DNA from: Alphaproteobacteria bacterium
GTDB taxonomy: Bacteria; Pseudomonadota; Alphaproteobacteria; JBFXJJ01
Direction of reading: 5' to 3'
DNA length: 64,000 nucleotides
Assembly: GCA_050175015.1 (NCBI GenBank)
Contig: JBFXJJ010000014.1
Span: forward strand, 1 to 64,000
The notes under the pieces are model-generated. The model was not told where the DNA came from. It ran no database searches and worked only from the letters and a program-made list of their open reading frames with translations. Position 1 is the first letter of the stretch. Each line of letters opens with the position of its first letter. A program made the translations under genes and the position numbers. Below, piece after piece: positions 38,828 to 50,077 of this stretch.

Positions 38828-41800
38828 TCAATTATTAATGTTTGGTTTGGAAAGCCATTCTGATACTTTTTCTAAGTAGAGATATATTACAGGTGTTATG
38901 AAAAGAGTTAAAGCTTGTGATGTTAAAAGTCCGCCAACAACAGCAAGTCCAAGAGGTTGTCTTAGTTCCGAGCCCGCTCCTATTCCAAGAGCAATGGGAA
39001 GTGTTCCAAAAAGAGCAGCCATAGATGTCATCATAATTGGTCTAAAGCGCATTAAACAGGCTTGATAAATAGCTTGTTCTGCTGGAGTTCCATTGTTTTT
39101 TTCAATTATAGCAAAGTCTATCATTAAAATGGCATTTTTCTTAACAATACCAATGAGCATAATAATACCAATCATTGCGATGACACTAAGTTCGACTTTA
39201 AACAGCATAAGGGTTAAAATTGCTCCTAAACCTGCGGAAGGCAGTCCTGATAAAATTGTGATAGGGTGAATAAAGCTTTCATAAAGCATACCTAAGATTA
39301 TGTATATTACGAGTACAGATAGTAGAAGTAAAAACACCTGACCTGATGCAGAATCCTGAAAAGCTTGAGCCGTCCCTTGGAAACTTGTAGATATTGTTGA
39401 CGGAAGTCCGGTTTCTCTTTCTATTTGTTCGATGCGAGATACCGCATCGCCTAAGGCAAATCCTTGTGTTAGGTTAAATGATATTGTAACAGACGGAAGT
39501 TGTCCTTGATGGTTAACAGACAAAGGGCTAGTTGATTGTGTCAATGTTACAATTGTATCGAGAGGGATAAGGTCTCCTTGGTTACCTCTAACATAAAGTT
39601 TTTTTATGTCGGACGGCGATTTTTGGCTATCGGCGCTGCTTTCTAGAATTACCTTATAATCGTCATCGGGTTTATATATGGTTGCAACTTCAGCATTGCC
39701 AAAGGCGGCGTATAATGTTTGCCTAATGTCATAATCACTGACCCCTAAGCTCGCAGCTTTATCTCTGTTTATATTAACCAAAGTGGCTAAACTCTTTAGT
39801 TGGAGATCTGTATTAACATCTTGAAAGATTGGTTCCGATTTTAGTGTCTGCTCAACTTTCTCAGACCAATTATAAAGCTCATCTAAATCACTTCCCTGCA
39901 GGGTATATTGGTAAAGGCTTTTAGCGGGGCGCCCTCCAATTTGAATGTTTTGGATTGGCTGCATAAAAATGTTAAAGCCCTCAATAGCACTTAAATCCTT
40001 TTTTAGTTTTTTCATAACTTCATTAGCGTGAGGTCTTGTATTGTAAGGAGTTAATCCAATAAGAATTCGTCCTGAATTCATAGATCCTCGGCTTCCGCCT
40101 AAAAAGTAAAATACTTTTTCAACATTTGGCTCTTTTGCAATAATTTCGGCGGCCTGCCTTTGTTTATCAAGCATAGAGGTATAAGAAATATCTTGGGCAC
40201 CTTCTGTTGAAGCAATAATCATTCCTGTATCTTCAATGGGGAAAAAACCTTTAGGTACGATAGCAAAAACATAGATTGTGCCAAACAATGTTAAGAAGGT
40301 CATAAATAAAGTGGTTTTCTTATATTTTAAAACTATAAGCAGAGATTTGTTATAGGCGTTTAATAGAAGTTCAAAACCATATTCCAGTAATTGTCCCAAA
40401 AAGTTTTCTTTTTCATTTTCTTTGTGAGGTTTAAGCCACAGACTACACAGCATAGGTGTGAGAGTTAAAGATATGAAGCCTGAAACTAAGATAGCAAAAC
40501 TTATAGTTATCGCAAACTCTAAAAAGAGCCTTCCCACAATTCCTCCCATAAAAATGACAGGAATAAAAACGGCAACCAAAGAAAGAGTTATTGAGATAAT
40601 AGTGAACCCAATTTCTTTAGCGCCCTTTAGTGCAGCTTCAAATGGTTTATCTCCTTGCTCAATGTATCTTACAATGTTTTCTAGCATAACAATAGCATCA
40701 TCAACGACAAAGCCAACACATAAGGTTAAAGCTAGAAGTGATATGTTGTTAATACTGAAACCAAAAGCCGCCATACCTCCATAGGTTGCCACGATTGATA
40801 ATGGAACAACAATAGCAGGGATAATTGTTGCTGAAAATTTTCTTAAAAAAAGAAAGATTACAGCTATAACTAAGACTATTGTTAATTTTAAAGTGAATTG
40901 AACATCGTGAACCGCTTCCTTAACTGCTATTGAGCGGTCAAAAATAGGGGTTAACTCTACTGACGGAGGAAGTTGGGCTTTAAGCCTAGGAAGCATAGCT
41001 CTTACGCTTTCTACAACTTCAATAGTATTAGCATCAGGCTGGCGCTGAATTGCAATGTTTACAGCTTTTTTGCCATTGGTTACGGCTGTTGTGTGGAGGT
41101 CTTCTACAGAATCATAGACATTAGCAACATCTTGCAGTCTTATGGGTGCTCCATTACGCCAAGCTATAATTAGTGATTTAAAATCGTCTGCTTTTTCGGC
41201 TGTATTTGAAATATTTATATTAAATAATTGTTTATCGCCGTTAATAAAACCTGTAGGCGAGTTCGATGAATTTTCACTTATGGCTTCTTTTAATTCGGAA
41301 AAACTTAAGTTATGAGCAGCTAAAGCTTGTGGATTTGCCTGAATTCTTACCGCATATTTTTGAGAACCATATATTATTACCTGAGCAACCCCTGAAAGCG
41401 TTGATATTCTGTTGCTGATTAAAGTATTGGCATATTCATTAACTTTAGATATGGGGACAGTTTCAGATGACACTGATATTATAATAATTGCTTGGTCTGC
41501 GGGATTTACCTTTGAAAAAGATGGAGGGTTGGTCATTTCTGGCGGTAAATTTTTCAGTGTTGCTGAAATAGCAGTTTGAACATCGAGAGCAGCGCCATCA
41601 ATATCTCGGCTGAGGTCAAACTGTAAAGTGATTTGCGTTGATCCCAAGAAACTGCTTGATGTCATAGACGTTATGCCTGCAATTCTGGAAAATTGGCGCT
41701 CTAAAGGCTGGGCTACAGAAGAAGCCATTGTTTCAGGGCTTGCTCCTGCTAACGTTGCTGATACTTGAATTGTTGGGAAGTCAACTTGAGGCAGGGCGCT

Positions 41801-41902
41801 TATGGCAAGATTTCGATAGCCCGCAATACCTCCGACAATAATAGCTATAGTTAAAAGAGTTGTAAAAACAGGTCTTCTAATGCAGAATTCTGATATATTC
41901 AT
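38828..41902 (-). CDS. RND efflux permease (MdtB/MdtC-like)
   Basis: RRPVFT, LPQVDFPTI, GFVVDDAIV, GIVKKNAI, RFRPIMMT; 1024 aa. Confidence 0.95.
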   Translation of the reverse strand: MNISEFCIRRPVFTTLLTIAIIVGGIAGYRNLAISALPQVDFPTIQVSATLAGASPETMASSVAQPLERQFSRIAGITSMTSSSFLGSTQITLQFDLSRDIDGAALDVQTAISATLKNLPPEMTNPPSFSKVNPADQAIIIISVSSETVPISKVNEYANTLISNRISTLSGVAQVIIYGSQKYAVRIQANPQALAAHNLSFSELKEAISENSSNSPTGFINGDKQLFNINISNTAEKADDFKSLIIAWRNGAPIRLQDVANVYDSVEDLHTTAVTNGKKAVNIAIQRQPDANTIEVVESVRAMLPRLKAQLPPSVELTPIFDRSIAVKEAVHDVQFTLKLTIVLVIAVIFLFLRKFSATIIPAIVVPLSIVATYGGMAAFGFSINNISLLALTLCVGFVVDDAIVMLENIVRYIEQGDKPFEAALKGAKEIGFTIISITLSLVAVFIPVIFMGGIVGRLFLEFAITISFAILVSGFISLTLTPMLCSLWLKPHKENEKENFLGQLLEYGFELLLNAYNKSLLIVLKYKKTTLFMTFLTLFGTIYVFAIVPKGFFPIEDTGMIIASTEGAQDISYTSMLDKQRQAAEIIAKEPNVEKVFYFLGGSRGSMNSGRILIGLTPYNTRPHANEVMKKLKKDLSAIEGFNIFMQPIQNIQIGGRPAKSLYQYTLQGSDLDELYNWSEKVEQTLKSEPIFQDVNTDLQLKSLATLVNINRDKAASLGVSDYDIRQTLYAAFGNAEVATIYKPDDDYKVILESSADSQKSPSDIKKLYVRGNQGDLIPLDTIVTLTQSTSPLSVNHQGQLPSVTISFNLTQGFALGDAVSRIEQIERETGLPSTISTSFQGTAQAFQDSASGQVFLLLLSVLVIYIILGMLYESFIHPITILSGLPSAGLGAILTLMLFKVELSVIAMIGIIMLIGIVKKNAILMIDFAIIEKNNGTPAEQAIYQACLMRFRPIMMTSMAALFGTLPIALGIGAGSELRQPLGLAVVGGLLTSQALTLFITPVIYLYLEKVSEWLSKPNINN

Positions 41903-41904
41903 TC

Positions 41905-43038
41905 TTATTTCTTTGCTTCAATTTGGGTACCATCTAAGACTTTTAATAAACCGTCCATAATTACGAAATCAAGTTCAGAAAGACCATCTTTAATGATGGC
42001 ATTTTCATTAATAATTTGATCCAAAGTTACGTTTTTCTTAACTGCTTTGTTGTTGGCGAGGTCGGCAACAAAAACAAAACGATTTTGCTCATCGCCTTGC
42101 AGTGCAGAGGCCGGTATGACGATAGCTGATTTAACACGTCCTAATTGAATAGTTGTATTAACAAACATTCCTGGCCATAGTTTTTCTTCGGCATTATTGA
42201 ATTTTGCTCGAGCAACAAAAGTTCCATTGCTGGTGTCAATATTATTATCAATATAGTCAAGTGTACCAATCATTGCATGAGAGCATTCTGGCAGATTTAC
42301 TGATATTTGAACATCATTGTCGTTGATAGAGTTTTTAACTAAATGATAGTAGCGCTGAGGTACAGAAAATTGAACTAGAATGGGATCAACTTGGTTTATT
42401 GTTACTAAAGGAGTGTCCGCATTTGCTTTAACATTATTTCCTGTCGTTTGATTAATGGTTCCTGCGCGTCCTGTTATTGGGGAACGGATTTCCATATAAT
42501 CAAGCGTAACATTGCTGTTTTCAATAGCAGCTTTGTCCCCAGCGATTAATGCTGTTTGAGCATCTAATGATGCTTTGTCTTGTTCCAGTTTTGCAACAGT
42601 TGTATAGCCCTTGTTGGTTAATTCTAAAGACCTTTCATATTGGGACTTTATGCTTATAAGCTGAGCTTCATCTTTTTGGAGGTTAGCCTTTTGTTGTTCA
42701 AGTGTGGCTTTTAATGCTCTGTTATCAAGGGTGAAAAGTTTTGCCCCAGCTTTTACTAAATCACCGTCATGAAAGTGTACAGCAGCTATTTGAGAATCTA
42801 AACGTGATTTAATAGCAATCGTTTTATATGCAAAAACTGTTCCTGCCAACTGGATTTCAATGGGAATGTCTTTGCGTTCAACTGGTGCGATGCTTACTAT
42901 TACAGACGGTTTTGATGAAGCATCTTTTAAGCCTGAGGAAATTTCATTTGACTGGGCTGATGGCTGGTTAAAAAACCATAAATAACTTATTGTAATAGTT
43001 ATGAGCAGAATAAAAAAAGCCCATTTTTTCATAGACAT
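41905..43038 (-). CDS. RND membrane fusion protein (MdtA-like)
   Basis: N-terminal TM, lipoyl/hairpin region, IRSPITG, LWPGMFV. Confidence 0.93.
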   Translation of the reverse strand: MSMKKWAFFILLITITISYLWFFNQPSAQSNEISSGLKDASSKPSVIVSIAPVERKDIPIEIQLAGTVFAYKTIAIKSRLDSQIAAVHFHDGDLVKAGAKLFTLDNRALKATLEQQKANLQKDEAQLISIKSQYERSLELTNKGYTTVAKLEQDKASLDAQTALIAGDKAAIENSNVTLDYMEIRSPITGRAGTINQTTGNNVKANADTPLVTINQVDPILVQFSVPQRYYHLVKNSINDNDVQISVNLPECSHAMIGTLDYIDNNIDTSNGTFVARAKFNNAEEKLWPGMFVNTTIQLGRVKSAIVIPASALQGDEQNRFVFVADLANNKAVKKNVTLDQIINENAIIKDGLSELDFVIMDGLLKVLDGTQIEAKK

Positions 43039-43238: not shown

Positions 43239-43550
43239 ATGGATAATAGACCTAAGTATTTTAATACAAAAAATATATTATTGCTTTTGGTAGCAGCTAT
43301 GTTAGCGGGCTTTTTAGTTCCTGAGGATTTAGTTTTTAAGTTTTATGTTCCATCTCTTGTTTTTATAGGCTTAGGACTGGTGCTTGATATAGGAACTGGT
43401 CATTTTTGGGATAAAGAGCTTTCTGAAAACAAAAAAGATAAGGATAATGAAAAAAAAGGTGAAGATGCTAAGCTTCCATCACTAAAAAGAGCGCTTACGC
43501 TGCTTTTGATTGCTTTGTTATGTTTTGGCGGCTGTTTTTCGTTTTTATGA
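43239..43550 (+). CDS. Small membrane peptide 1 with C-terminal KLPS-x17-C motif (candidate precursor)
   Basis: 103 aa; hydrophobic N-part, charged linker, then KLPSLKRALTLLLIALLCFGGCFSFL; motif shared with the next two ORFs. Confidence 0.75.
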   Translation: MDNRPKYFNTKNILLLLVAAMLAGFLVPEDLVFKFYVPSLVFIGLGLVLDIGTGHFWDKELSENKKDKDNEKKGEDAKLPSLKRALTLLLIALLCFGGCFSFL

Positions 43551-43580
43551 TTTATAATATTAGATGTTTTTTGGTGTTTT

Positions 43581-43790
43581 ATGTATACGTATACTAAATC
43601 TTTAATTTTTAGCCTTATCGTTCCTTCTTATTGTATCTTGTTTGCGATTATCGGCTTTATATATGTCGAGATTGCTCGTCTGATAGCTAAAAAAGATGCT
43701 GATCCAAAGAAGCTTCCAAGCTTTCGCTCTCCATTAATTCTTATCTTGATTGCGTTTTTTAGTTTTTTTGGCTGTTTGTATTTGGGTTAA
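43581..43790 (+). CDS. Small membrane peptide 2 with C-terminal KLPS-x17-C motif (candidate precursor)
   Basis: 69 aa; AKKDADPKKLPSFRSPLILILIAFFSFFGCLYLG. Confidence 0.75.
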   Translation: MYTYTKSLIFSLIVPSYCILFAIIGFIYVEIARLIAKKDADPKKLPSFRSPLILILIAFFSFFGCLYLG

Positions 43791-43810
43791 TTTTTTTATA
43801 TGGTGATTTT

Positions 43811-44032
43811 ATGACTAGTTTTTTAATATTTTGTCTTGCGGTTTCTGTTGTTTTTTCAGTTTTAGCTGTTTTAAGTTTTTCGTATGTTGTAATTGTCCGC
43901 ACCATTCGAGCTGAGGCTAAAAAAGATGGTGATTGTAAAAAACTGCCCAGTTTTCGTTTTGCTCTGGTTGCATTTTTGATCGCTCTTTTTTGTTCTGGTG
44001 GGTGCTTTAGTGTGCTTTGGTTGAGCAAATAA
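43811..44032 (+). CDS. Small membrane peptide 3 with C-terminal KLPS-x17-C motif (candidate precursor)
   Basis: 73 aa; AKKDGDCKKLPSFRFALVAFLIALFCSGGCFSVLWLSK; the Cys is residue 65, as in peptide 2. Confidence 0.75.
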   Translation: MTSFLIFCLAVSVVFSVLAVLSFSYVVIVRTIRAEAKKDGDCKKLPSFRFALVAFLIALFCSGGCFSVLWLSK

Positions 44033-44045
44033 GGTTAAACCGTTG

Positions 44046-44228
44046 ATGGAAAATATGGCATATATTTTGGGTGGAAATTTTATTGTATTCCTTCTTTAGG
44101 GGTGAGTTGAGTTTTACTTTGTCTTAATTAATCGAATAACAAAAACTAAAAGATGGGTAAGAGTATTTCATATTTTATTCTTGTCGATGTTTTTTATAAT
44201 AACAACGTGGTTTTTTAAGGGTTTCTAG
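44046..44228 (+). pseudogene. Possible decayed fourth small membrane peptide
   Basis: One frame reads MENMAYILGGNFIVFLL*G*VEFYFVLINRITKTKRWVRVFHILFLSMFFIITTWFFKGF*: a hydrophobic-basic-hydrophobic layout with two internal stops; lacks KLPS and GC. Confidence 0.3.
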
Positions 44229-44314
44229 TAATTATTACTTTGAAGCATATTGATTTTTTTGCAGATACTTTCTTAGTATAATCTGTAATGTTTTTTTAAG
44301 AGGTTTGATAAATT

Positions 44315-45640
44315 TTGGTGTATAACACAACTAGTTGTTGTCCGGTTTGTTTAGAAATTTTGCCTGCGGTAAAAAAAGTTGAGGGCAATTTAGTATATTT
44401 AGAAAGGAATTGTCCTAAACACGGTTTTTTCAAGACATTAGTCAGTAAAGATGCCGAGCGCTTTTTTGATAAGAGATTTATTTCTGCGGGAAAAGAGCGT
44501 TATGAAAATCAAACCGAAGTTGCCAAAGGTTGCCCGTATGATTGCGGACTTTGTCCTGAACATAAACAGCATTTATGTTCGGCATTGATTGAGATTACTG
44601 ACAAGTGCAATCTTTCTTGTCCCGTTTGCTATTTTGGAGAATGCGGTGGTTCGGATATTTCTCTTGCAGAGTTTAAAAAAAGGCTGGCAACAGTTATGCG
44701 AACAGAAAATGGCAAGCTTGATGTTTTACAGGTATCTGGTGGTGAACCAACGCTGCACCCGCTTTTTGAAGAAATTATAAGTGAGGCTTGCCTTGAGAAC
44801 ATTGGGCGTGTTGTTATTAACACCAATGGCATTAAACTGCTTGAAGATGACAAATTGTTTGAAGTAATAAAAAAGAATAAAGAGCGGCTGGAAATTTATT
44901 TGCAGTTTGATGGTTTTAACGAAACCGCCAACCTAAAACTTAGAGGTTTAGATTTATCTGAGGTGAAAACAAAAGTGATTGCAAAGCTTGATAGTGAAGA
45001 TATTAGAATGAGTTTTGCGGTAACTGTTATTGAAGACAACCTTTCGGAGCTAAAAAAAATTCTAGATTTGGCTTGTAAAACTAAAAATGTAACGGGCATA
45101 ACTTTTCAAAGATTAACCAAATCAGGCAAGGGGACATCTTTGTCAGAAGAAAAGGCGCTGGTTCAAGAGGATTTGCTTGTTGCCATAAGTGATAGCGGCT
45201 ATTTAAAATATCAAGATATTGTTCCGCTTCCTTGTTCTCACGAAAACTGTACCTCAATTAGTTTTTTGTTTGTAACTAAAGACAAAATTTATTCATTAGC
45301 AGATTTCATTAATTATGAAAAACATCAAAATATAATTAAAGATAAAATAGGTTTTGAAGCTTCAATTTTGGATTATATTAAAGAAGAATTTGGCTGTGCC
45401 TGCTGCTCTAGTTTTATGACCAAAGCTTTGCCCGTTGTTCAAAAATTTAGAGAATTTGCCGCAGGTAGAAAAGCTGTTAATCATAATATGAAAATTCTTA
45501 GGATACTGGTTAAAAATTTTATGGACTCTTCTACCTTTGATACCGAGAGAGCTAAAAAATGCTGCATTGGTGTTGCTACTGGAGATAATAAAATTATTCC
45601 TTTTTGCGTTAATAATATTTTTAAAAACAAGAGTTGCTAA
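44315..45640 (+). CDS. Radical SAM enzyme of the Tes/GDGT-MAS (MJ0619) family
   Basis: N-terminal CPVC...CPKHG, GCPYDCGLCPEH, radical SAM CNLSCPVC, SGGEPT, NTNG, YLQFDG, PLPC, and C-terminal FMD...KCCI...PFC. Confidence 0.85.
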   Translation: MVYNTTSCCPVCLEILPAVKKVEGNLVYLERNCPKHGFFKTLVSKDAERFFDKRFISAGKERYENQTEVAKGCPYDCGLCPEHKQHLCSALIEITDKCNLSCPVCYFGECGGSDISLAEFKKRLATVMRTENGKLDVLQVSGGEPTLHPLFEEIISEACLENIGRVVINTNGIKLLEDDKLFEVIKKNKERLEIYLQFDGFNETANLKLRGLDLSEVKTKVIAKLDSEDIRMSFAVTVIEDNLSELKKILDLACKTKNVTGITFQRLTKSGKGTSLSEEKALVQEDLLVAISDSGYLKYQDIVPLPCSHENCTSISFLFVTKDKIYSLADFINYEKHQNIIKDKIGFEASILDYIKEEFGCACCSSFMTKALPVVQKFREFAAGRKAVNHNMKILRILVKNFMDSSTFDTERAKKCCIGVATGDNKIIPFCVNNIFKNKSC

Positions 45641-46336
45641 ATGATTGATGAACATTATCCTTTAAATTCGGGGATTTACAGTCTGGCTGTTTTAACGAGC
45701 TTTTTGGTTGGATTGTTTATATTAAAACAAAGCAAAGAAGAAGCTTTAAGCATTGTTAAAGTTAAATATGTTTTGCCTGTATTTTTGGTTGGAGCAATTA
45801 TTGGGGCAAAAATTCCTGTAATTCTTAGCTATGGTTGGCATAAGGAATTTTTTTTAACAGGGAAAAGTTATTATGGAGCTTTGATTGGCGCATTTATCGC
45901 AATTAATATTTATAAATATGTATATAAAATTAAAGAGCATTTCGGCGGAAGACTAGTTGTTCCGCTGGCGGTTGGTGCTGGAATTGGTAAAATAGGCTGC
46001 TTTTTTTATGGCTGTTGCAGTGGCACTGAAACGGATTTCTTTATAAAGATACAAAACGTCCATGGGCAGTATGTCCACCCTGTGCAGTTGTATGAAAGTT
46101 TTTTTGAGTTTCTTATGGCGGCGGTCTTTTATTGTTACTATAGAAAAAAGGCAAAAATGCCTCCAGAAGCGTTTTTAATGTATCTGCTTTCTTATATGAT
46201 TTTTAGGTTTTTAATAGAATTTATTAGAATTGAACCCAAAGTCTATTTAGGATTAAGTGTTTACCAGTTAATGTCGATTGTATTCGTCCCTGTTTTTATG
46301 TTTGAACTTTTTAGGAGATTGCGAAATGCCAAGTGA
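45641..46336 (+). CDS. Divergent prolipoprotein diacylglyceryl transferase (Lgt) family protein
   Basis: GKSYYGALIG, IGKIGCFFYGCCSG (cf. LGRxGNFxNGE), HPVQLYE, RFLIEFIR; about 7 TMs; starts immediately after the radical SAM stop (TAAATG). Confidence 0.85.
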   Translation: MIDEHYPLNSGIYSLAVLTSFLVGLFILKQSKEEALSIVKVKYVLPVFLVGAIIGAKIPVILSYGWHKEFFLTGKSYYGALIGAFIAINIYKYVYKIKEHFGGRLVVPLAVGAGIGKIGCFFYGCCSGTETDFFIKIQNVHGQYVHPVQLYESFFEFLMAAVFYCYYRKKAKMPPEAFLMYLLSYMIFRFLIEFIRIEPKVYLGLSVYQLMSIVFVPVFMFELFRRLRNAK

Positions 46337-47321
46337 TTTTATCAGTGAGTTGTATTCCAGAATAGAGATGAAAACTGAATTCCCGCTTTTGTTTTTATCC
46401 GCTTGGGGAATTATGGCGTTAACCGCTGCCGCTATAGCTTTTAGTGTTGCATATAAATTTATGGAATATGGTTCAAAATCAAAAGAAGTTGTTAAACATA
46501 AAAAACATATTGTCGAAACGTTTTCGATGACGGTTTTAGTTGTGGTTATTTTTAATGTTTTGGTCGCTAATTTTGGTTCATTCAAACTAGATTATATTAC
46601 CGCTTTAATGGCATTAATATGGGGCGCACTTTGGGTTTTTATTGCAACGTGGCTTCATATCTGGTCAAAAAAAGAAATTGGTTTGTTCTGGTCTAATCAA
46701 ATAGAAATTACAAAGGGGCATAAAATTGTTACAAGAGGTCCTTATGCCTTAGTTCGGCACCCAATGTATTCATCTATGATAATATGGCTTTTGGCGGTTT
46801 CTTTGATGTTTGCTAATTATATCGGGTTAGCTTTAAGCCTGATTATTTTTACACCAATAATGATATGGAGAGCAAAATCAGAAGATAAACTTTTGCAAGA
46901 TTTAGATAAAACAAGTTTTGTTACATTTTCTGAAAAAACCAATATCCTTGTTCCTCATCTCGGACGAAAACTATCTCTTATTATTAGAATTATCGGAATT
47001 GGCTTGCTAGGGTATTCGGTGGTTTTAAATCAGATGACTTTTGAACGTTTGGTCTTCTTATTTATAATGTTTATAACAATAAGCCTTACGTCTAACTTAG
47101 CTAAAGTTAGATTTTCATATTTTAATAAGTCTTTGTTTTTATTTGTTATTTATGCAGCAGCTTTGGCTGTTCCTAAATTTTATTTCTTGTATTATGTAAT
47201 TCTGGCTTTCAATATCTGGGGCTTAAAATTTAATTGCCCCTGTATGGCAGTTTATGAAAAATATAATGGCTGCCCTTGTTTTAGATGGTTAAAAACAACG
47301 TGCCGCTTAAAGAATAAATAA
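46326..47321 (+). CDS. Isoprenylcysteine carboxyl methyltransferase (ICMT)/PEMT family membrane protein with an extra C-terminal TM and Cys-rich extension
   Basis: IGLFWS, HKIVTRGPYALVRHPMYS, RAKSED.LL; start taken at ATG 46326, overlapping the Lgt-like stop; tail CPC-x9-CPC-x7-C. Confidence 0.82.
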   Translation: MPSDFISELYSRIEMKTEFPLLFLSAWGIMALTAAAIAFSVAYKFMEYGSKSKEVVKHKKHIVETFSMTVLVVVIFNVLVANFGSFKLDYITALMALIWGALWVFIATWLHIWSKKEIGLFWSNQIEITKGHKIVTRGPYALVRHPMYSSMIIWLLAVSLMFANYIGLALSLIIFTPIMIWRAKSEDKLLQDLDKTSFVTFSEKTNILVPHLGRKLSLIIRIIGIGLLGYSVVLNQMTFERLVFLFIMFITISLTSNLAKVRFSYFNKSLFLFVIYAAALAVPKFYFLYYVILAFNIWGLKFNCPCMAVYEKYNGCPCFRWLKTTCRLKNK

Positions 47322-47376: not shown

Positions 47377-49119
47377 GTGCGTAAGTTTTTATTAAAATGG
47401 TTTTCGAAAGATAAAAAAGGGTTTGATTTAATATCATTAAATCTTAAAAATATTTTTTTGCTTATTAGTTTTTCCATTTATATCGTATTGATTTTTTTGG
47501 GTATTGTAAAATTTACCAAGTACACGTTTTTGTTAAACATACCTATTTTTATTATAGGCTATAATTTTATCTCTTTTTTGGCGTTTATTGCGAGTTTGTT
47601 TCAAAGAAATTTGTTAGAAACAGTTATGAAAGGAACTCCCAAGCAAGTAGAAAAAGCAGCAGCTAAGCTTAAGGATATTAATTTCAGGTTCGATGAAACC
47701 TGTAACTTTGCTTTTGATATGGAATGGAAAACGGTTATAGGAAATACTCCTTTAATAATTGCGACAGCTGTTAATGATAACCTAGAAGTTATAAAAACGC
47801 TGATTAGACTTGGAGCGGATATAAATGCTAAAAATAACTGTAACGAAAATCTTTTACACCCTGCCGCAGCAAATAAAAACCCCGAAGTATTAAAAATGGT
47901 CCTAACTATGGGGTTTGATGTTAACGAGACTAATTCATATGGTTGTCCGCCATTATTTCTTGCGTCAGGCAATGTTGCTAATTTGAAAATATTGCTAGAT
48001 AAAGGCGCTAATATTAATGTCAAAGACAAAAATGGGCTTGGCGTATTACATTTCGCCGCAGATAGAATAAATCCTGACGTAAGTACATTTAATTTGTTAT
48101 TTAATAAGGGCAGTTTGCGAGGTTGTTTAGAAAGTGTAAAACTGCTTATAGCTAAAGGGGCATATGTTAATGTCAAAGACAAAGATGGATTAACACCTTT
48201 AATGATTGCGGCAAGTAATAACAATAAAGAAATTGTTAAGGCTCTTATCGATGCTGGGGCTGATATTTCTGCAACAGATAATAAAGGGCGTAATGCTCTT
48301 TTTATTGCTCAGCAAGATAACAGTCGCAATGTTATAAAAATTTTAGTTAAAGCAGGTCTTAAATCTGATGCTAAAGATATAGAAGGCAAAACCGTAGAAG
48401 AATATGTTTATCCAAAAGAAGAAACAGGCAAGATTTATCGCAGTTTTGTAATATTGGGCGTTGGTTATATAACCTTGCTCCAATTAATTCTTTTTTGGCA
48501 AAAAAATCCCAATGCAATAGCGACAATTCCAATGACTCTTGCATTGATTGTGATAGGTAAAACGTTTTTTAAGGACAGACCTGCCAAGAGAGAGAAGAAG
48601 TTTTGGTCAACAGAACACCATTTAATAAGAAATAATATCCATCTTTATTGTATATTAGTTGCTATTATTGCATACGGTATTCTTAATTTTTATTATGTTG
48701 GTTCCTATAGCTGTATTAATATAACAGAAATTTTTCAAAAAATATGGCTTTTCAGCTATGATAAACAGCATATTTTTATAAAGCATTTTTCTTTGGATAT
48801 TAACGTTTATTTTAATTTGTTATATGCTGTAATAGCCGCAGGAATACTATCTCTAAATCTGGTTAATCCGATATATGAAAAAAGTGTTTTTAATGAGGAA
48901 AGTCTTTTGCGAAAAGTTTATCTTTTAGGCTCTTCAGTTCTTGTGTTTTTTATGGGTTGGATTTTTATTTCTGTTTCAGCGCCTAAAAAAGAGGTGTTTA
49001 CATTCTCTGGTTCTTTTTTCCTTATTTTTGTTGCTTTTGTGAGCTTTTTTTCTACTCTTTTAAATATATTTGTTGCCATAAAAGATAAAGGCAAGAGAGT
49101 AGAATCTCTTGAAAGATAA
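47377..49119 (+). CDS. Ankyrin-repeat integral membrane protein
   Basis: 2 N-terminal TMs, about 6-7 ankyrin repeats (GNTPLIIA, GADINAKN, GLTPLMIAA, GRNALFIA), about 6 C-terminal TMs. Confidence 0.85.
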   Translation: MRKFLLKWFSKDKKGFDLISLNLKNIFLLISFSIYIVLIFLGIVKFTKYTFLLNIPIFIIGYNFISFLAFIASLFQRNLLETVMKGTPKQVEKAAAKLKDINFRFDETCNFAFDMEWKTVIGNTPLIIATAVNDNLEVIKTLIRLGADINAKNNCNENLLHPAAANKNPEVLKMVLTMGFDVNETNSYGCPPLFLASGNVANLKILLDKGANINVKDKNGLGVLHFAADRINPDVSTFNLLFNKGSLRGCLESVKLLIAKGAYVNVKDKDGLTPLMIAASNNNKEIVKALIDAGADISATDNKGRNALFIAQQDNSRNVIKILVKAGLKSDAKDIEGKTVEEYVYPKEETGKIYRSFVILGVGYITLLQLILFWQKNPNAIATIPMTLALIVIGKTFFKDRPAKREKKFWSTEHHLIRNNIHLYCILVAIIAYGILNFYYVGSYSCINITEIFQKIWLFSYDKQHIFIKHFSLDINVYFNLLYAVIAAGILSLNLVNPIYEKSVFNEESLLRKVYLLGSSVLVFFMGWIFISVSAPKKEVFTFSGSFFLIFVAFVSFFSTLLNIFVAIKDKGKRVESLER

Positions 49120-49204
49120 AAACTCGTGGTATTTTTATAAAAAAAGCTTTTCATAAAAAGTAAAAAAATATAAGGTCTATTTTTTATTTATGGGAGCAAT
49201 AAAA

Positions 49205-50077
49205 ATGAAGAAAATATCCCTTGCTCGTGAAAATATTTCGCCACGCAGGCTCGTTTTGACTGTGCTGGGAACGGTTGCTTGCCTTGCTTTTTTCTGGTGG
49301 TTTTTCTTTATGCGTGGTTTAGAGAAAACTGACAATGCATATCTTAAGACTAATATTACCGTGCTAAGCCCTAAGATAACGGGATATGTTGCCAAAGTTC
49401 TAGTAGAAGATAATCAAAAGGTTGCAGAAGGCGATGTCGTTGTTATTATCGACAGCCGTGATTTTGAAGCTAAAGTCTCTCAAGCCGATGCTAGTTTGCT
49501 GGTTGCAGATGCAGAATTAGAGCGAATAGAAAAAGATTTAAAAAGAACAGAGAATTTAGTTGCTAAAGGCAATGCATCAGAACAATCTCTTGATAGTATT
49601 AGAGCAGAATATAAGATTGCTTTAGGGCAAGTTCAAACGGCTAAGGCAGATTTAGAGCTAGCTAAGATTGATTTGGAAAACACAATAATAAAAGCTCCAA
49701 GGTCGGGATATATTGGTAATAAAGGCGTTAGAGAAGGGCAGCTTGTTAAGGCTGGAACCGCTCTTGCTAGTCTGGTTCCCGATAATGAAATTTGGGTAGA
49801 AGCTAATTTTAAAGAAACTCAAATTGAAGATATTAAAGAAGGGCAGAAGGTCAAAATTGAAGTTGATGCTTATCCTAGTGATGATTTTGAAGGCATAGTT
49901 GAAAGCCTTGCACCTGCTAGCGGCTCAGAGTTTAGTATTCTTCCTCCAGAAAATGCTACGGGCAATTTTACAAAAATAGTTAGAAGAATACCTGTTAGAA
50001 TTAAATTTAAGCAAGGTGAAGATGTCTCTAAATTAAAAGCTGGTATGTCTGTCTTTACAACGGTTTTTGTTAAATGA
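49205..50077 (+). CDS. emrA: EmrA/HlyD-family membrane fusion protein
   Basis: TDNAY, IKAP..G, WVEANFKETQ, ILPPENATGNFTKIVRRIPV; start taken at MKKIS (49205). Confidence 0.88.
   Translation: MKKISLARENISPRRLVLTVLGTVACLAFFWWFFFMRGLEKTDNAYLKTNITVLSPKITGYVAKVLVEDNQKVAEGDVVVIIDSRDFEAKVSQADASLLVADAELERIEKDLKRTENLVAKGNASEQSLDSIRAEYKIALGQVQTAKADLELAKIDLENTIIKAPRSGYIGNKGVREGQLVKAGTALASLVPDNEIWVEANFKETQIEDIKEGQKVKIEVDAYPSDDFEGIVESLAPASGSEFSILPPENATGNFTKIVRRIPVRIKFKQGEDVSKLKAGMSVFTTVFVK

Follow-up and report, generated by a model that had tools for sequence, protein, structure and literature searches.

What brings three genes for small membrane peptides, each ending shortly after a Gly-Cys pair, together with three genes for enzymes from superfamilies that work on lipids? 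This question is raised by a 64,000-nucleotide stretch of an alphaproteobacterial contig (JBFXJJ010000014.1, positions 1 to 64,000, assembly GCA_050175015.1), hereafter the window. Six open reading frames (ORFs), all in one direction, occupy its positions 43239-47321 (+). Three encode the peptides, here A, B and C, and the others encode a radical S-adenosylmethionine (SAM) enzyme of the Tes/TrsS superfamily, a short paralog of the lipoprotein-modifying enzyme Lgt and a membrane methyltransferase similar to ICMT and PEMT. An earlier note, made from the sequence alone, had described this layout of three tandem Gly-Cys small ORFs and three co-oriented enzyme genes, and the coordinates it gave all proved correct. 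The analysis presented here strongly supports the association of the peptides with the enzymes and, judged by sequence comparison, the cassette is a self-contained four-part set, patchy across phyla, in which one to three peptides are joined by a radical SAM enzyme of the Tes type, a paralog of Lgt and a methyltransferase resembling ICMT. As to function, we favor, at a probability of roughly 0.45, a reading in which the peptides are dedicated covalent substrates: the Lgt paralog would lipidate their periplasm-side Cys, and the two cytoplasm-side enzymes would remodel the attached lipid.

The association rests on 55 loci found by scanning one genome per species with an alignment of the radical SAM enzyme, at which the partner genes were sought by tblastn with the proteins of the window. 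The Lgt paralog lies downstream of the radical SAM gene at 46 of the 55 loci, and an ICMT-like gene follows in the same order at 44 of these 46, the exceptions being L028, where the contig ends, and L008, which is without the gene; looking for ICMT genes was part of the check proposed in the earlier note. Of the nine loci without Lgt, six (L006, L016, L029, L031, L044, and L056) end within the radical SAM gene or at most about 600 bp past it, and a seventh (L057) shows a partial match of 38%; the last two are true exceptions and are considered below.

The peptides recur together with the enzymes. Indeed, the gap between the radical SAM and Lgt genes measures 200-1100 bp in most loci and holds small ORFs of similar kind. 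When stop-to-stop frames were scanned for 14 mostly hydrophobic residues followed by [GAST] and Cys, motif-bearing frames were found in the cassette at 45 of the 46 radical SAM + Lgt loci, for a total of 60 frames (53 between the radical SAM and Lgt genes, 5 upstream, and 2 downstream), as against a single frame when the same regions were read on the opposite strand and 20 in 267,666 bp of flanking sequence with both strands counted. A stricter, ORF-based count gave 45/491 within the cassette, 0/1095 on the opposite strand, and 7/2183 in the flanks. Furthermore, a count blind to the motif identified 63 frames filling the gaps of 43 loci, 58 of them with a hydrophobic helix, and the motif is present in 49 of these 58. 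At least one motif frame is present at 42 of the 43 loci whose gap reaches 150 bp or more. Within the radical SAM-Lgt gap only, 35 loci have one motif frame and seven have two, and three peptides per locus are seen in the window and at L003. The claim that the peptides belong with the enzymes thus survived a test set beforehand. Searching the loci by tblastn with the peptides of the window gave no matches because the peptides are short and diverged. Conversely, in the genome of the window (2.53 Mb, 17,399 small ORFs), the peptide pattern with its G-C tail is matched by the three cassette peptides only, and a peptide hidden Markov model, of which A, B, and C are part by construction, matches these three with a next best E value of 0.24. 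Neither approach reveals an extra copy apart from the enzymes in this genome, in keeping with the association of peptides and enzymes proposed in the earlier note.

According to the record labels, the 46 loci are found in Elusimicrobia (19 loci), Alphaproteobacteria (11 loci, including the cultured Rhizomicrobium electricum DSM 21034, L040), bacteria without a finer label (9 loci), Kiritimatiellae, Verrucomicrobia, or Opitutales (3 loci), and, with one locus each, Pseudomonadota with no class given, Planctomycetaceae, Cloacimonadota, and Desulfocapsaceae. Rumen and gut are the habitat of most carriers. The closest relatives of the window cassette are those of L003 (Cloacimonadota, 60% identity) and L004 (Desulfocapsaceae, 58% identity), in which, as in the window, the peptides are encoded upstream of the radical SAM gene and have a G-G-C ending. 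Within 121 Elusimicrobiota genomes, the radical SAM family (at least 754 bits) occurs in three and the Lgt paralog (at least 324 bits) in the same three, both genes standing on one contig a few hundred bases apart, and the remaining Lgt matches in these genomes do not exceed 102 bits. We consider the distribution patchy because only one of the 40 nearest genomes, all from the same class, has a radical SAM relative, and a distant one (32%). The flanks have no further gene family in common across phyla, and no LspA, Lnt, CaaX-type (CPBP/Rce1) protease, prenyltransferase, hydrolase or release enzyme, transporter, or leader protease is conserved in or near the cassette. In eight Elusimicrobiaceae loci, the immediate upstream neighbor of the radical SAM gene, in the same orientation, is a gene combining MFS transporter, acyltransferase, and AMP-binding domains; the example at L024:2542-5997 encodes these as one fusion protein of 1151 aa, which we take to resemble the LplT/Aas lysophospholipid recycling pair.

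In the window, peptide A (43239..43550, +; 103 aa) has a basic KLPSLKR segment, a transmembrane helix, and then G-G-Cys99 (codon 43533-43535, +) with the tail FSFL. Peptide B (43581..43790, +; 69 aa) is composed of a first transmembrane helix, the basic loop AKKDADPKKLPSFR, a second helix, and F-G-Cys65 (codon 43773-43775, +) with the tail LYLG, and peptide C (43811..44032, +; 73 aa) shares this layout, its G-G-Cys65 (codon 44003-44005, +) being followed by FSVLWLSK. The distance from Cys to the C-terminus is therefore 4, 4, and 8 residues in A, B, and C. The three are paralogs by BLASTP (E = 2e-14 for B versus C and 1e-10 for A versus C), and their alignment has 15 invariant columns, including K-L-P-S, L-I-A, and G-C; the common block reads K-L-P-S-[FL]-[KR], about 14 hydrophobic residues, G-C, and the tail. 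None has a significant match to a Pfam or NCBIfam family. A GGTGA Shine-Dalgarno-like site precedes peptide C, and the sites of A and B are weak.

After a spacer of 282 bp comes the radical SAM gene (44315..45640, +; 441 aa, starting at TTG 44315 or GTG 44318), whose TAA stop at 45638-45640 immediately abuts the ATG of the Lgt paralog at 45641 (45641..46336, +; 231 aa). The TGA stop of the latter (46334-46336) lies in an 11-nt overlap with the methyltransferase gene (46326..47321, +; 331 aa from ATG 46326, or 347 aa from 46278), and AGGAG is located 8 nt upstream of ATG 46326; both junctions, on which the earlier note had founded translational coupling, were verified in the sequence. Scans for promoters (12 promoter-like sites, fewer than the 19.0 in shuffles) and terminators (4 terminator-like sites versus 3.4 in shuffles, which is chance level) were uninformative on operon structure.

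The peptides of the whole family were compared through 56 non-redundant contexts of the Cys, from which a downstream motif frame of L045 (position 9460) had been removed as belonging to a different, unrelated reading frame. The residue at position -1 is Thr in 35, Gly in 12, Ala in 8, and Ser in one; Gly occupies position -2 in 27/56 and Pro position -7 in 31/56, and the nearest upstream Lys or Arg stands 15-29 residues before the Cys, with a mode of 20. What follows the Cys varies from 3 to about 70 residues. The Cys is 3-12 residues from the C-terminus in 25 of the 56 peptides, whereas 30 extend at least 50 residues further with two more hydrophobic helices, and in none is it the C-terminal residue. 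It is invariant among motif-positive frames by construction; when 16 short-tail peptides were aligned, only two other columns were invariant besides that of the Cys. The one feature kept throughout is a basic residue, about 20 hydrophobic residues, a small residue [T/G/A/S], and Cys. Of the motif given in the earlier note, a transmembrane helix followed by Gly-Cys at the C-terminus, the Cys after the helix recurs, but the Gly is replaced by Thr in the 35 contexts mentioned above and the C-terminal location is lost in the 30 long-tail peptides.

From the charge distribution, we infer that the N-terminal hydrophilic parts or, in the peptides of the window, the basic loops are cytoplasmic. The helix would therefore have the Cys at its periplasmic end, just where Lgt alkylates the Cys of a lipobox. 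A lipobox in the strict sense, [LVI][ASTVI][GAS]C at an N-terminal signal peptide, was not found in the peptides, in which the motif is internal or C-terminal. At L009:4612-6107, from an Elusimicrobiaceae metagenome-assembled genome (MAG), the radical SAM frame continues without a stop into a Cys peptide. This C-terminal in-frame fusion would fit the topology with the N-terminus inside; seen in a single MAG, it may reflect either a genuine fusion or an error in sequencing. Two variants of the peptides are worth recording. Alphaproteobacterial cassette peptides (L007:7516-7878, L014:7696-8058, and relatives) have a SHOCT-like N-terminus, with a weak score of 24.8 bits against a cut-off of 27. 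An Elusimicrobia MAG encodes at L045:8930-9418 a 162-aa Cys-motif protein with an extra N-terminal soluble part, whose gene sits just after the methyltransferase gene and not before the Lgt gene; a fusion of this protein with the methyltransferase was considered and rejected, as a stop codon separates the two.

The radical SAM enzyme matches Pfam Radical_SAM (60.9 bits) and Zn_ribbon_HMPTM (53.9 bits). Its top curated NCBIfam model is TrsS (NF045646), at 269.3 bits for a cut-off of 490, and the Tes model (NF045702) gives 200.2 bits for a cut-off of 450, over model positions 2-282 of 486 only. Other members of the family score similarly, with 176-205 bits for Tes and 244-283 bits for TrsS (244-263 bits for P0011, P0088, and P0050), and RefSeq names the Rhizomicrobium protein "radical SAM protein" only. 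The alignment with the GDGT-MAS structure 7TOL reaches 178.5 bits and spans the N-terminal zinc-ribbon, radical SAM, and C-terminal domains. Among 19 sequences of the family, 56 columns are invariant, and by alignment only, invariant residues coincide with the metal sites of Tes, namely C9/C12/C33/H36, C73/C77/C80/H83, C98/C102/C105, and C416/C417/C431 with M403. These sites are described in a review as a rubredoxin-like Cys3His site, an N-terminal Cys3His cluster, a CX3CX2C radical SAM cluster, and a C-terminal Cys3Met cluster. The C-terminal ligand set of the cassette enzyme appears as CC...C plus FMD, and H86, C88, C307, and C363 are additional invariants of the family.

Identity with TrsS was rejected: the score lies under the cut-off, and the Desulfocapsaceae genome G041 carries separately a true TrsS (611 bits) and, 46 kb away in another neighborhood, a member of the cassette family (283 bits). 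The gene of the window has no in-frame TGA. The TrsS of G041, at L059:5509-8388 (-), forms a frame of 959 codons if TGA is read as selenocysteine, with about 500 further residues after the radical SAM part. As regards peptide-modifying enzymes, the NCBIfam matches to the maturases AlbA (45.5 bits) and SkfB (28.5 bits) are weak and are explained by the shared radical SAM core, and Pfam and NCBIfam scans of the enzymes gave no SPASM or RRE family match. Judging from these scores and alignments, the enzyme represents a separate clade of the Tes/TrsS superfamily, one without a curated model. The Tes-like assignment of the earlier note accordingly stands at the level of the superfamily, but the enzyme is neither Tes nor TrsS by the NCBIfam cut-offs.

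The second enzyme is upheld as a member of the Lgt superfamily by Pfam LGT (109.5 bits, cut-off 24.9, positions 13-235 of 240); it reaches 67.2 bits with NCBIfam TIGR00544, below the cut-off of 118.9, and the genome has a housekeeping lgt elsewhere (C1:310706-311515, 250.6 bits). Sequence similarity to the Lgt structure 5AZB is weak (22.9 bits). The paralog keeps the equivalents of E. coli Y26, Y235, R239, E243, and R246. Compared with E. coli Lgt and with the housekeeping copy, its H103 is replaced, most of the periplasmic head is missing, and the signature G-K-I-G-C-x3-G-C-C (in full G-K-I-G-C-F-F-Y-G-C-C-S-G) stands in place of E. coli G142-R-L-G-N-F-I-N-G-E-L-W-G154, so that the E. coli-type signature is absent. 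According to Mao 2016, Lgt acts on Cys from the periplasmic side with phosphatidylglycerol as donor, and the mutants R143A/E/K, E151A/Q, and H103A/N/Q/R/Y of the E. coli enzyme are all inactive. We considered whether the Cys-rich signature (N146C, E151C, H103 lost) marks a new chemistry and rejected this idea, since the same signature occurs in cassette-free Lgt homologues. Indeed, the sole Lgt homologue of each of three cassette-free Elusimicrobiota genomes checked reads G-R-I-G-C-F-x-A-G-C-C-Y-G, with N146C, E151C, and H103 lost, and a profile search over 1.84 billion representatives found GCxxxGCC in 125 of the 150 best, nearly all with G-R-x-G-C. Two of those carrying GCxxxGCC that were tested (P0210 and P0253) pass the TIGR00544 cut-off. 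By these comparisons, the Cys-rich signature is a normal variant of the Lgt family, and the cassette paralog descends from that branch, whose members with G-R-x-G-C-x3-G-C-C and without H103 are exemplified by L063-L067 and P0129-P0270. Specific to the cassette clade, which is small (six representatives at 209 bits or more), are the Lys at the R143 position, a conserved G-K-S motif, and a short length (206-234 aa). The structural model of the paralog has a predicted local distance difference test score (pLDDT) of 90.4. Complex prediction with the Lgt paralog and peptide alignments gave a score of 0.00 in two runs without controls and was not used either way.

The third enzyme likewise holds its assignment at the superfamily level, with Pfam ICMT at 54.7 bits (cut-off 24) and PEMT at 45 bits; NCBIfam NF040696 gives 92.1 bits for a cut-off of 160. 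Ma-ICMT (4A2N) is matched by sequence (50 bits) and by Foldseek (E = 4.1e-6, TM-target 0.73) with a model of pLDDT 92.4, and 5V7P is matched at E = 3.8e-3. The protein has a C-terminal extension of about 120 aa ending in CPC-x(8-10)-CPC (x9 in the protein of the window), which is present in 41 of 43 homologues, the other two being cut by contig ends. Feature and structure searches with this extension gave no usable match, all structure rows having TM < 0.5, and a word-index homologue search with residues 205-331 returned only the protein itself, which is a limit of the index and not a sign of uniqueness.

How could these parts work together? In the reading we favor, the Lgt paralog would take a glyceryl lipid from a phospholipid of the membrane and attach it to the thiol of the Cys, without obligatory cleavage of a signal peptide. 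The acyl chains bound in this way would extend toward the middle of the bilayer, where a Tes-type enzyme acts on chain termini, and the cytoplasm-side Tes-like enzyme could then use 5'-deoxyadenosyl radical chemistry to couple these termini by C-C bonds, either with one another or with a lipid of the inner leaflet. On the cytoplasmic side, a carboxyl or a head group would be methylated by the ICMT/PEMT-like enzyme. The outcome would be a peptide that a remodelled lipid, possibly a membrane-spanning one, retains in the membrane. The occurrence of the peptides in multiple copies, typical of substrates, points the same way. A narrower form, in which the peptide becomes bound to a membrane-spanning lipid because the Lgt paralog loads the Cys with a diacylglyceryl-type lipid, its chain end is coupled by a C-C bond to an inner-leaflet lipid and that second lipid is methylated, would fit the same genes; we consider it quite unlikely.

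Several observations weigh against this reading. At two loci, L005 (Thermoguttaceae) and L043 (Kiritimatiellaeota), at least 1.9 kb of sequence downstream of the radical SAM gene holds neither Lgt nor ICMT, and L008, the sole locus without peptides, is also the one that has no methyltransferase. Cys-less paralogous small proteins exist at some alphaproteobacterial loci (L007 and L014). A Thr at position -1, as in 35/56 contexts, falls outside the published lipobox [G/A/S]. The Lys found at the R143 position in 44 of 45 cassette paralogs corresponds to R143K, which inactivates E. coli Lgt, and a Foldseek search of the PDB with the model of the paralog gave no match at E < 0.001, 5AZB not being listed. 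The methyltransferase raises a difficulty of its own. SAM-dependent enzymes, including ICMT, act from the cytoplasmic side, so that with a periplasmic Cys the methyltransferase could not cap it directly unless the product flips. By analogy with CaaX processing, ICMT-type capping of the lipidated Cys would be attractive for the 25 short-tail peptides; it is confronted with the topology, the 30 long-tail peptides, and the lack of a conserved protease.

The best surviving alternative is that the three enzymes make or alter a membrane lipid that stays free of peptide, such as a methylated glycerolipid coupled tail to tail, and that the peptides are not substrates but subunits that anchor or organize the soluble radical SAM enzyme at the membrane, their Cys being a structural, metal-binding, or redox residue. 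Lipid substrates are a common trait of all three superfamilies (Tes, Lgt through its phosphatidylglycerol donor, and PEMT, matched at 45 bits), the radical SAM-peptide fusion of L009 resembles a plain membrane anchor, and the Cys-less paralogs of L007 and L014 and the MFS-acyltransferase-AMP-binding gene of the eight Elusimicrobiaceae loci would find a place here. Bacterial Tes homologues have also been proposed for membrane-spanning lipids (Zeng 2022). However, an anchor needs no small residue and Cys at the periplasmic helix end, conserved at 45/46 loci while other positions drift, nor does it need up to three divergent copies per locus, as in the window and L003, and the sole known acceptor of the Lgt family is a peptide Cys. 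We regard this explanation as possible but somewhat unlikely.

A carrier or scaffold role is harder to sustain. The Cys-bound lipid would then be transient: the Lgt paralog would put it in place, the radical SAM enzyme and the methyltransferase would modify it in its tethered state, and it would leave as a free specialized lipid. This would draw on the same comparative evidence as the substrate reading and would explain why the sequence after the Cys varies freely, from 3 to about 70 residues. Yet the cassette has no conserved hydrolase or release enzyme, and an Lgt-type thioether is chemically stable, which makes such a role very doubtful. More improbable is a classical ribosomally synthesized and post-translationally modified peptide (RiPP), whose backbone or side chains the radical SAM enzyme would alter, for example by a thioether or C-C crosslink, with the membrane enzymes devoted to tailoring or export. 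Short, multi-copy ORFs beside a radical SAM gene are indeed the layout of RiPP precursors, found here at 45/46 loci, and the weak AlbA (45.5 bits) and SkfB (28.5 bits) matches go in the same direction. Against it stand the absence of a SPASM or RRE match, the full-length likeness to the lipid enzyme GDGT-MAS, C-terminal domain included, and the location of the only conserved peptide residue, which would be across the membrane from a cytoplasmic enzyme; furthermore, neither the family matches of the enzymes nor the conserved flanks include a recognition element, leader protease, or exporter. Finally, that the small ORFs stand open merely by chance, within AT-rich spacers, is next to inconceivable, for although they match no family and A and B have weak Shine-Dalgarno sites, they are paralogs (E = 2e-14 and 1e-10) and motif frames occur at 45/46 loci as against one on the opposite strand.

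Beyond the cassette, a co-oriented ankyrin-repeat gene (47377-49119, +) begins 55 bp past the stop codon of the methyltransferase. It encodes a 580-aa protein (Ank_2, 130.5 bits) with hydrophobic regions at both termini, which scores 74 bits with Dot/Icm Ank effector models, far under their cut-off of 600, and its neighborhood to the cassette is not conserved at other loci. Efflux genes stand on both sides, with an AcrB-type RND pump (1041 bits) and an HlyD-type adaptor upstream (38828-43038, -) and a further HlyD-type adaptor downstream (49190-50077, +).

No part of the cassette reaches an NCBIfam equivalog cut-off, and the known systems that come closest each share one part with it. Lipoprotein maturation by Lgt (5AZB) has in common the LGT domain, the five residue equivalents, an acceptor-like motif of basic, hydrophobic, and small residues before the Cys, and a Cys on what would be the periplasmic side. 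It differs in that the cassette Lgt is a second, shorter copy, under the TIGR00544 cut-off and with Lys for R143, and in that the cassette motif is not at an N-terminal signal peptide, has mostly Thr at -1, and comes with no LspA or Lnt partner; the Cys-rich signature, being common to the large GRxGCxxxGCC branch of homologues, is not a cassette-specific difference. Tes/GDGT-MAS (7TOL) is alike over three domains (178.5 bits) and in the aligned ligand sets of four metal sites, whereas the cassette enzyme has about 440 aa as compared with the 526 aa of the 7TOL chain, the extra invariants H86, C88, C307, and C363, and a bacterial setting that includes an Lgt paralog and peptides, partners not reported for Tes in the portions of the sources available. 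TrsS provides the best-scoring curated model, but its cut-off of 490 is missed and the in-frame TGA is absent.

CaaX processing offers an ICMT-fold methyltransferase, here beside a possible Cys S-alkylating enzyme, and a Cys near the C-terminus as in 25/56 of our peptides. The cassette, however, has neither a prenyltransferase nor a CPBP/Rce1-type protease, 30/56 of its peptides have long tails, the Cys would be periplasmic, and the methyltransferase adds a C-terminal CPC...CPC domain for which the search found no relatives. The MYXO-CTERM/myxosortase system, as presented in the accessible part of Guo et al. 2025, also has an invariant Cys by a transmembrane helix with predicted Lgt-like lipidation. 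Its order, though, is the reverse (Cys, helix, and cytoplasmic Arg), and it is a CPBP-cleaved tag on large secreted proteins, with no radical SAM enzyme or methyltransferase in that part of the source. Mss and the proposed enzymes for branched glycerol dialkyl glycerol tetraethers (brGDGT) are bacterial radical SAM enzymes likewise proposed to couple lipid tails; compared by description only, from the available parts of the review and of Zeng 2022, they have no peptide, Lgt, or ICMT partner described there. The combination is not described in the papers found, a set that does not extend to supplementary Tes lists or to the description of TrsS, which agrees with the earlier note, whose author knew of no characterized pathway with it. 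The system thus appears undescribed, none of the known ones combining its parts.

What does the cassette mean for these families? Not all members of the Lgt family have the residues N146, E151, and H103, which are considered essential in the E. coli enzyme. Bacterial Tes homologues feature in print, within the available parts of the review and of Zeng 2022, only as candidates for producing membrane-spanning lipids, and the latter source ties their role to the origin of the membrane-spanning lipids used as climate proxies. For the clade identified here, the fixed partners, together with a probable substrate, make the function directly testable, with a cultured carrier, Rhizomicrobium electricum DSM 21034, among its hosts. 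If the peptides are lipidated, the cassette would be a second, dedicated route of protein lipidation on the Lgt fold, followed by radical chemistry on the attached lipid. If, moreover, the peptide is bound to a membrane-spanning lipid, a function would be assigned for the first time to a Tes homologue from bacteria, no earlier case of a bola-type lipid bound to protein would exist, and two-membrane bacteria would have a second lipoprotein pathway.

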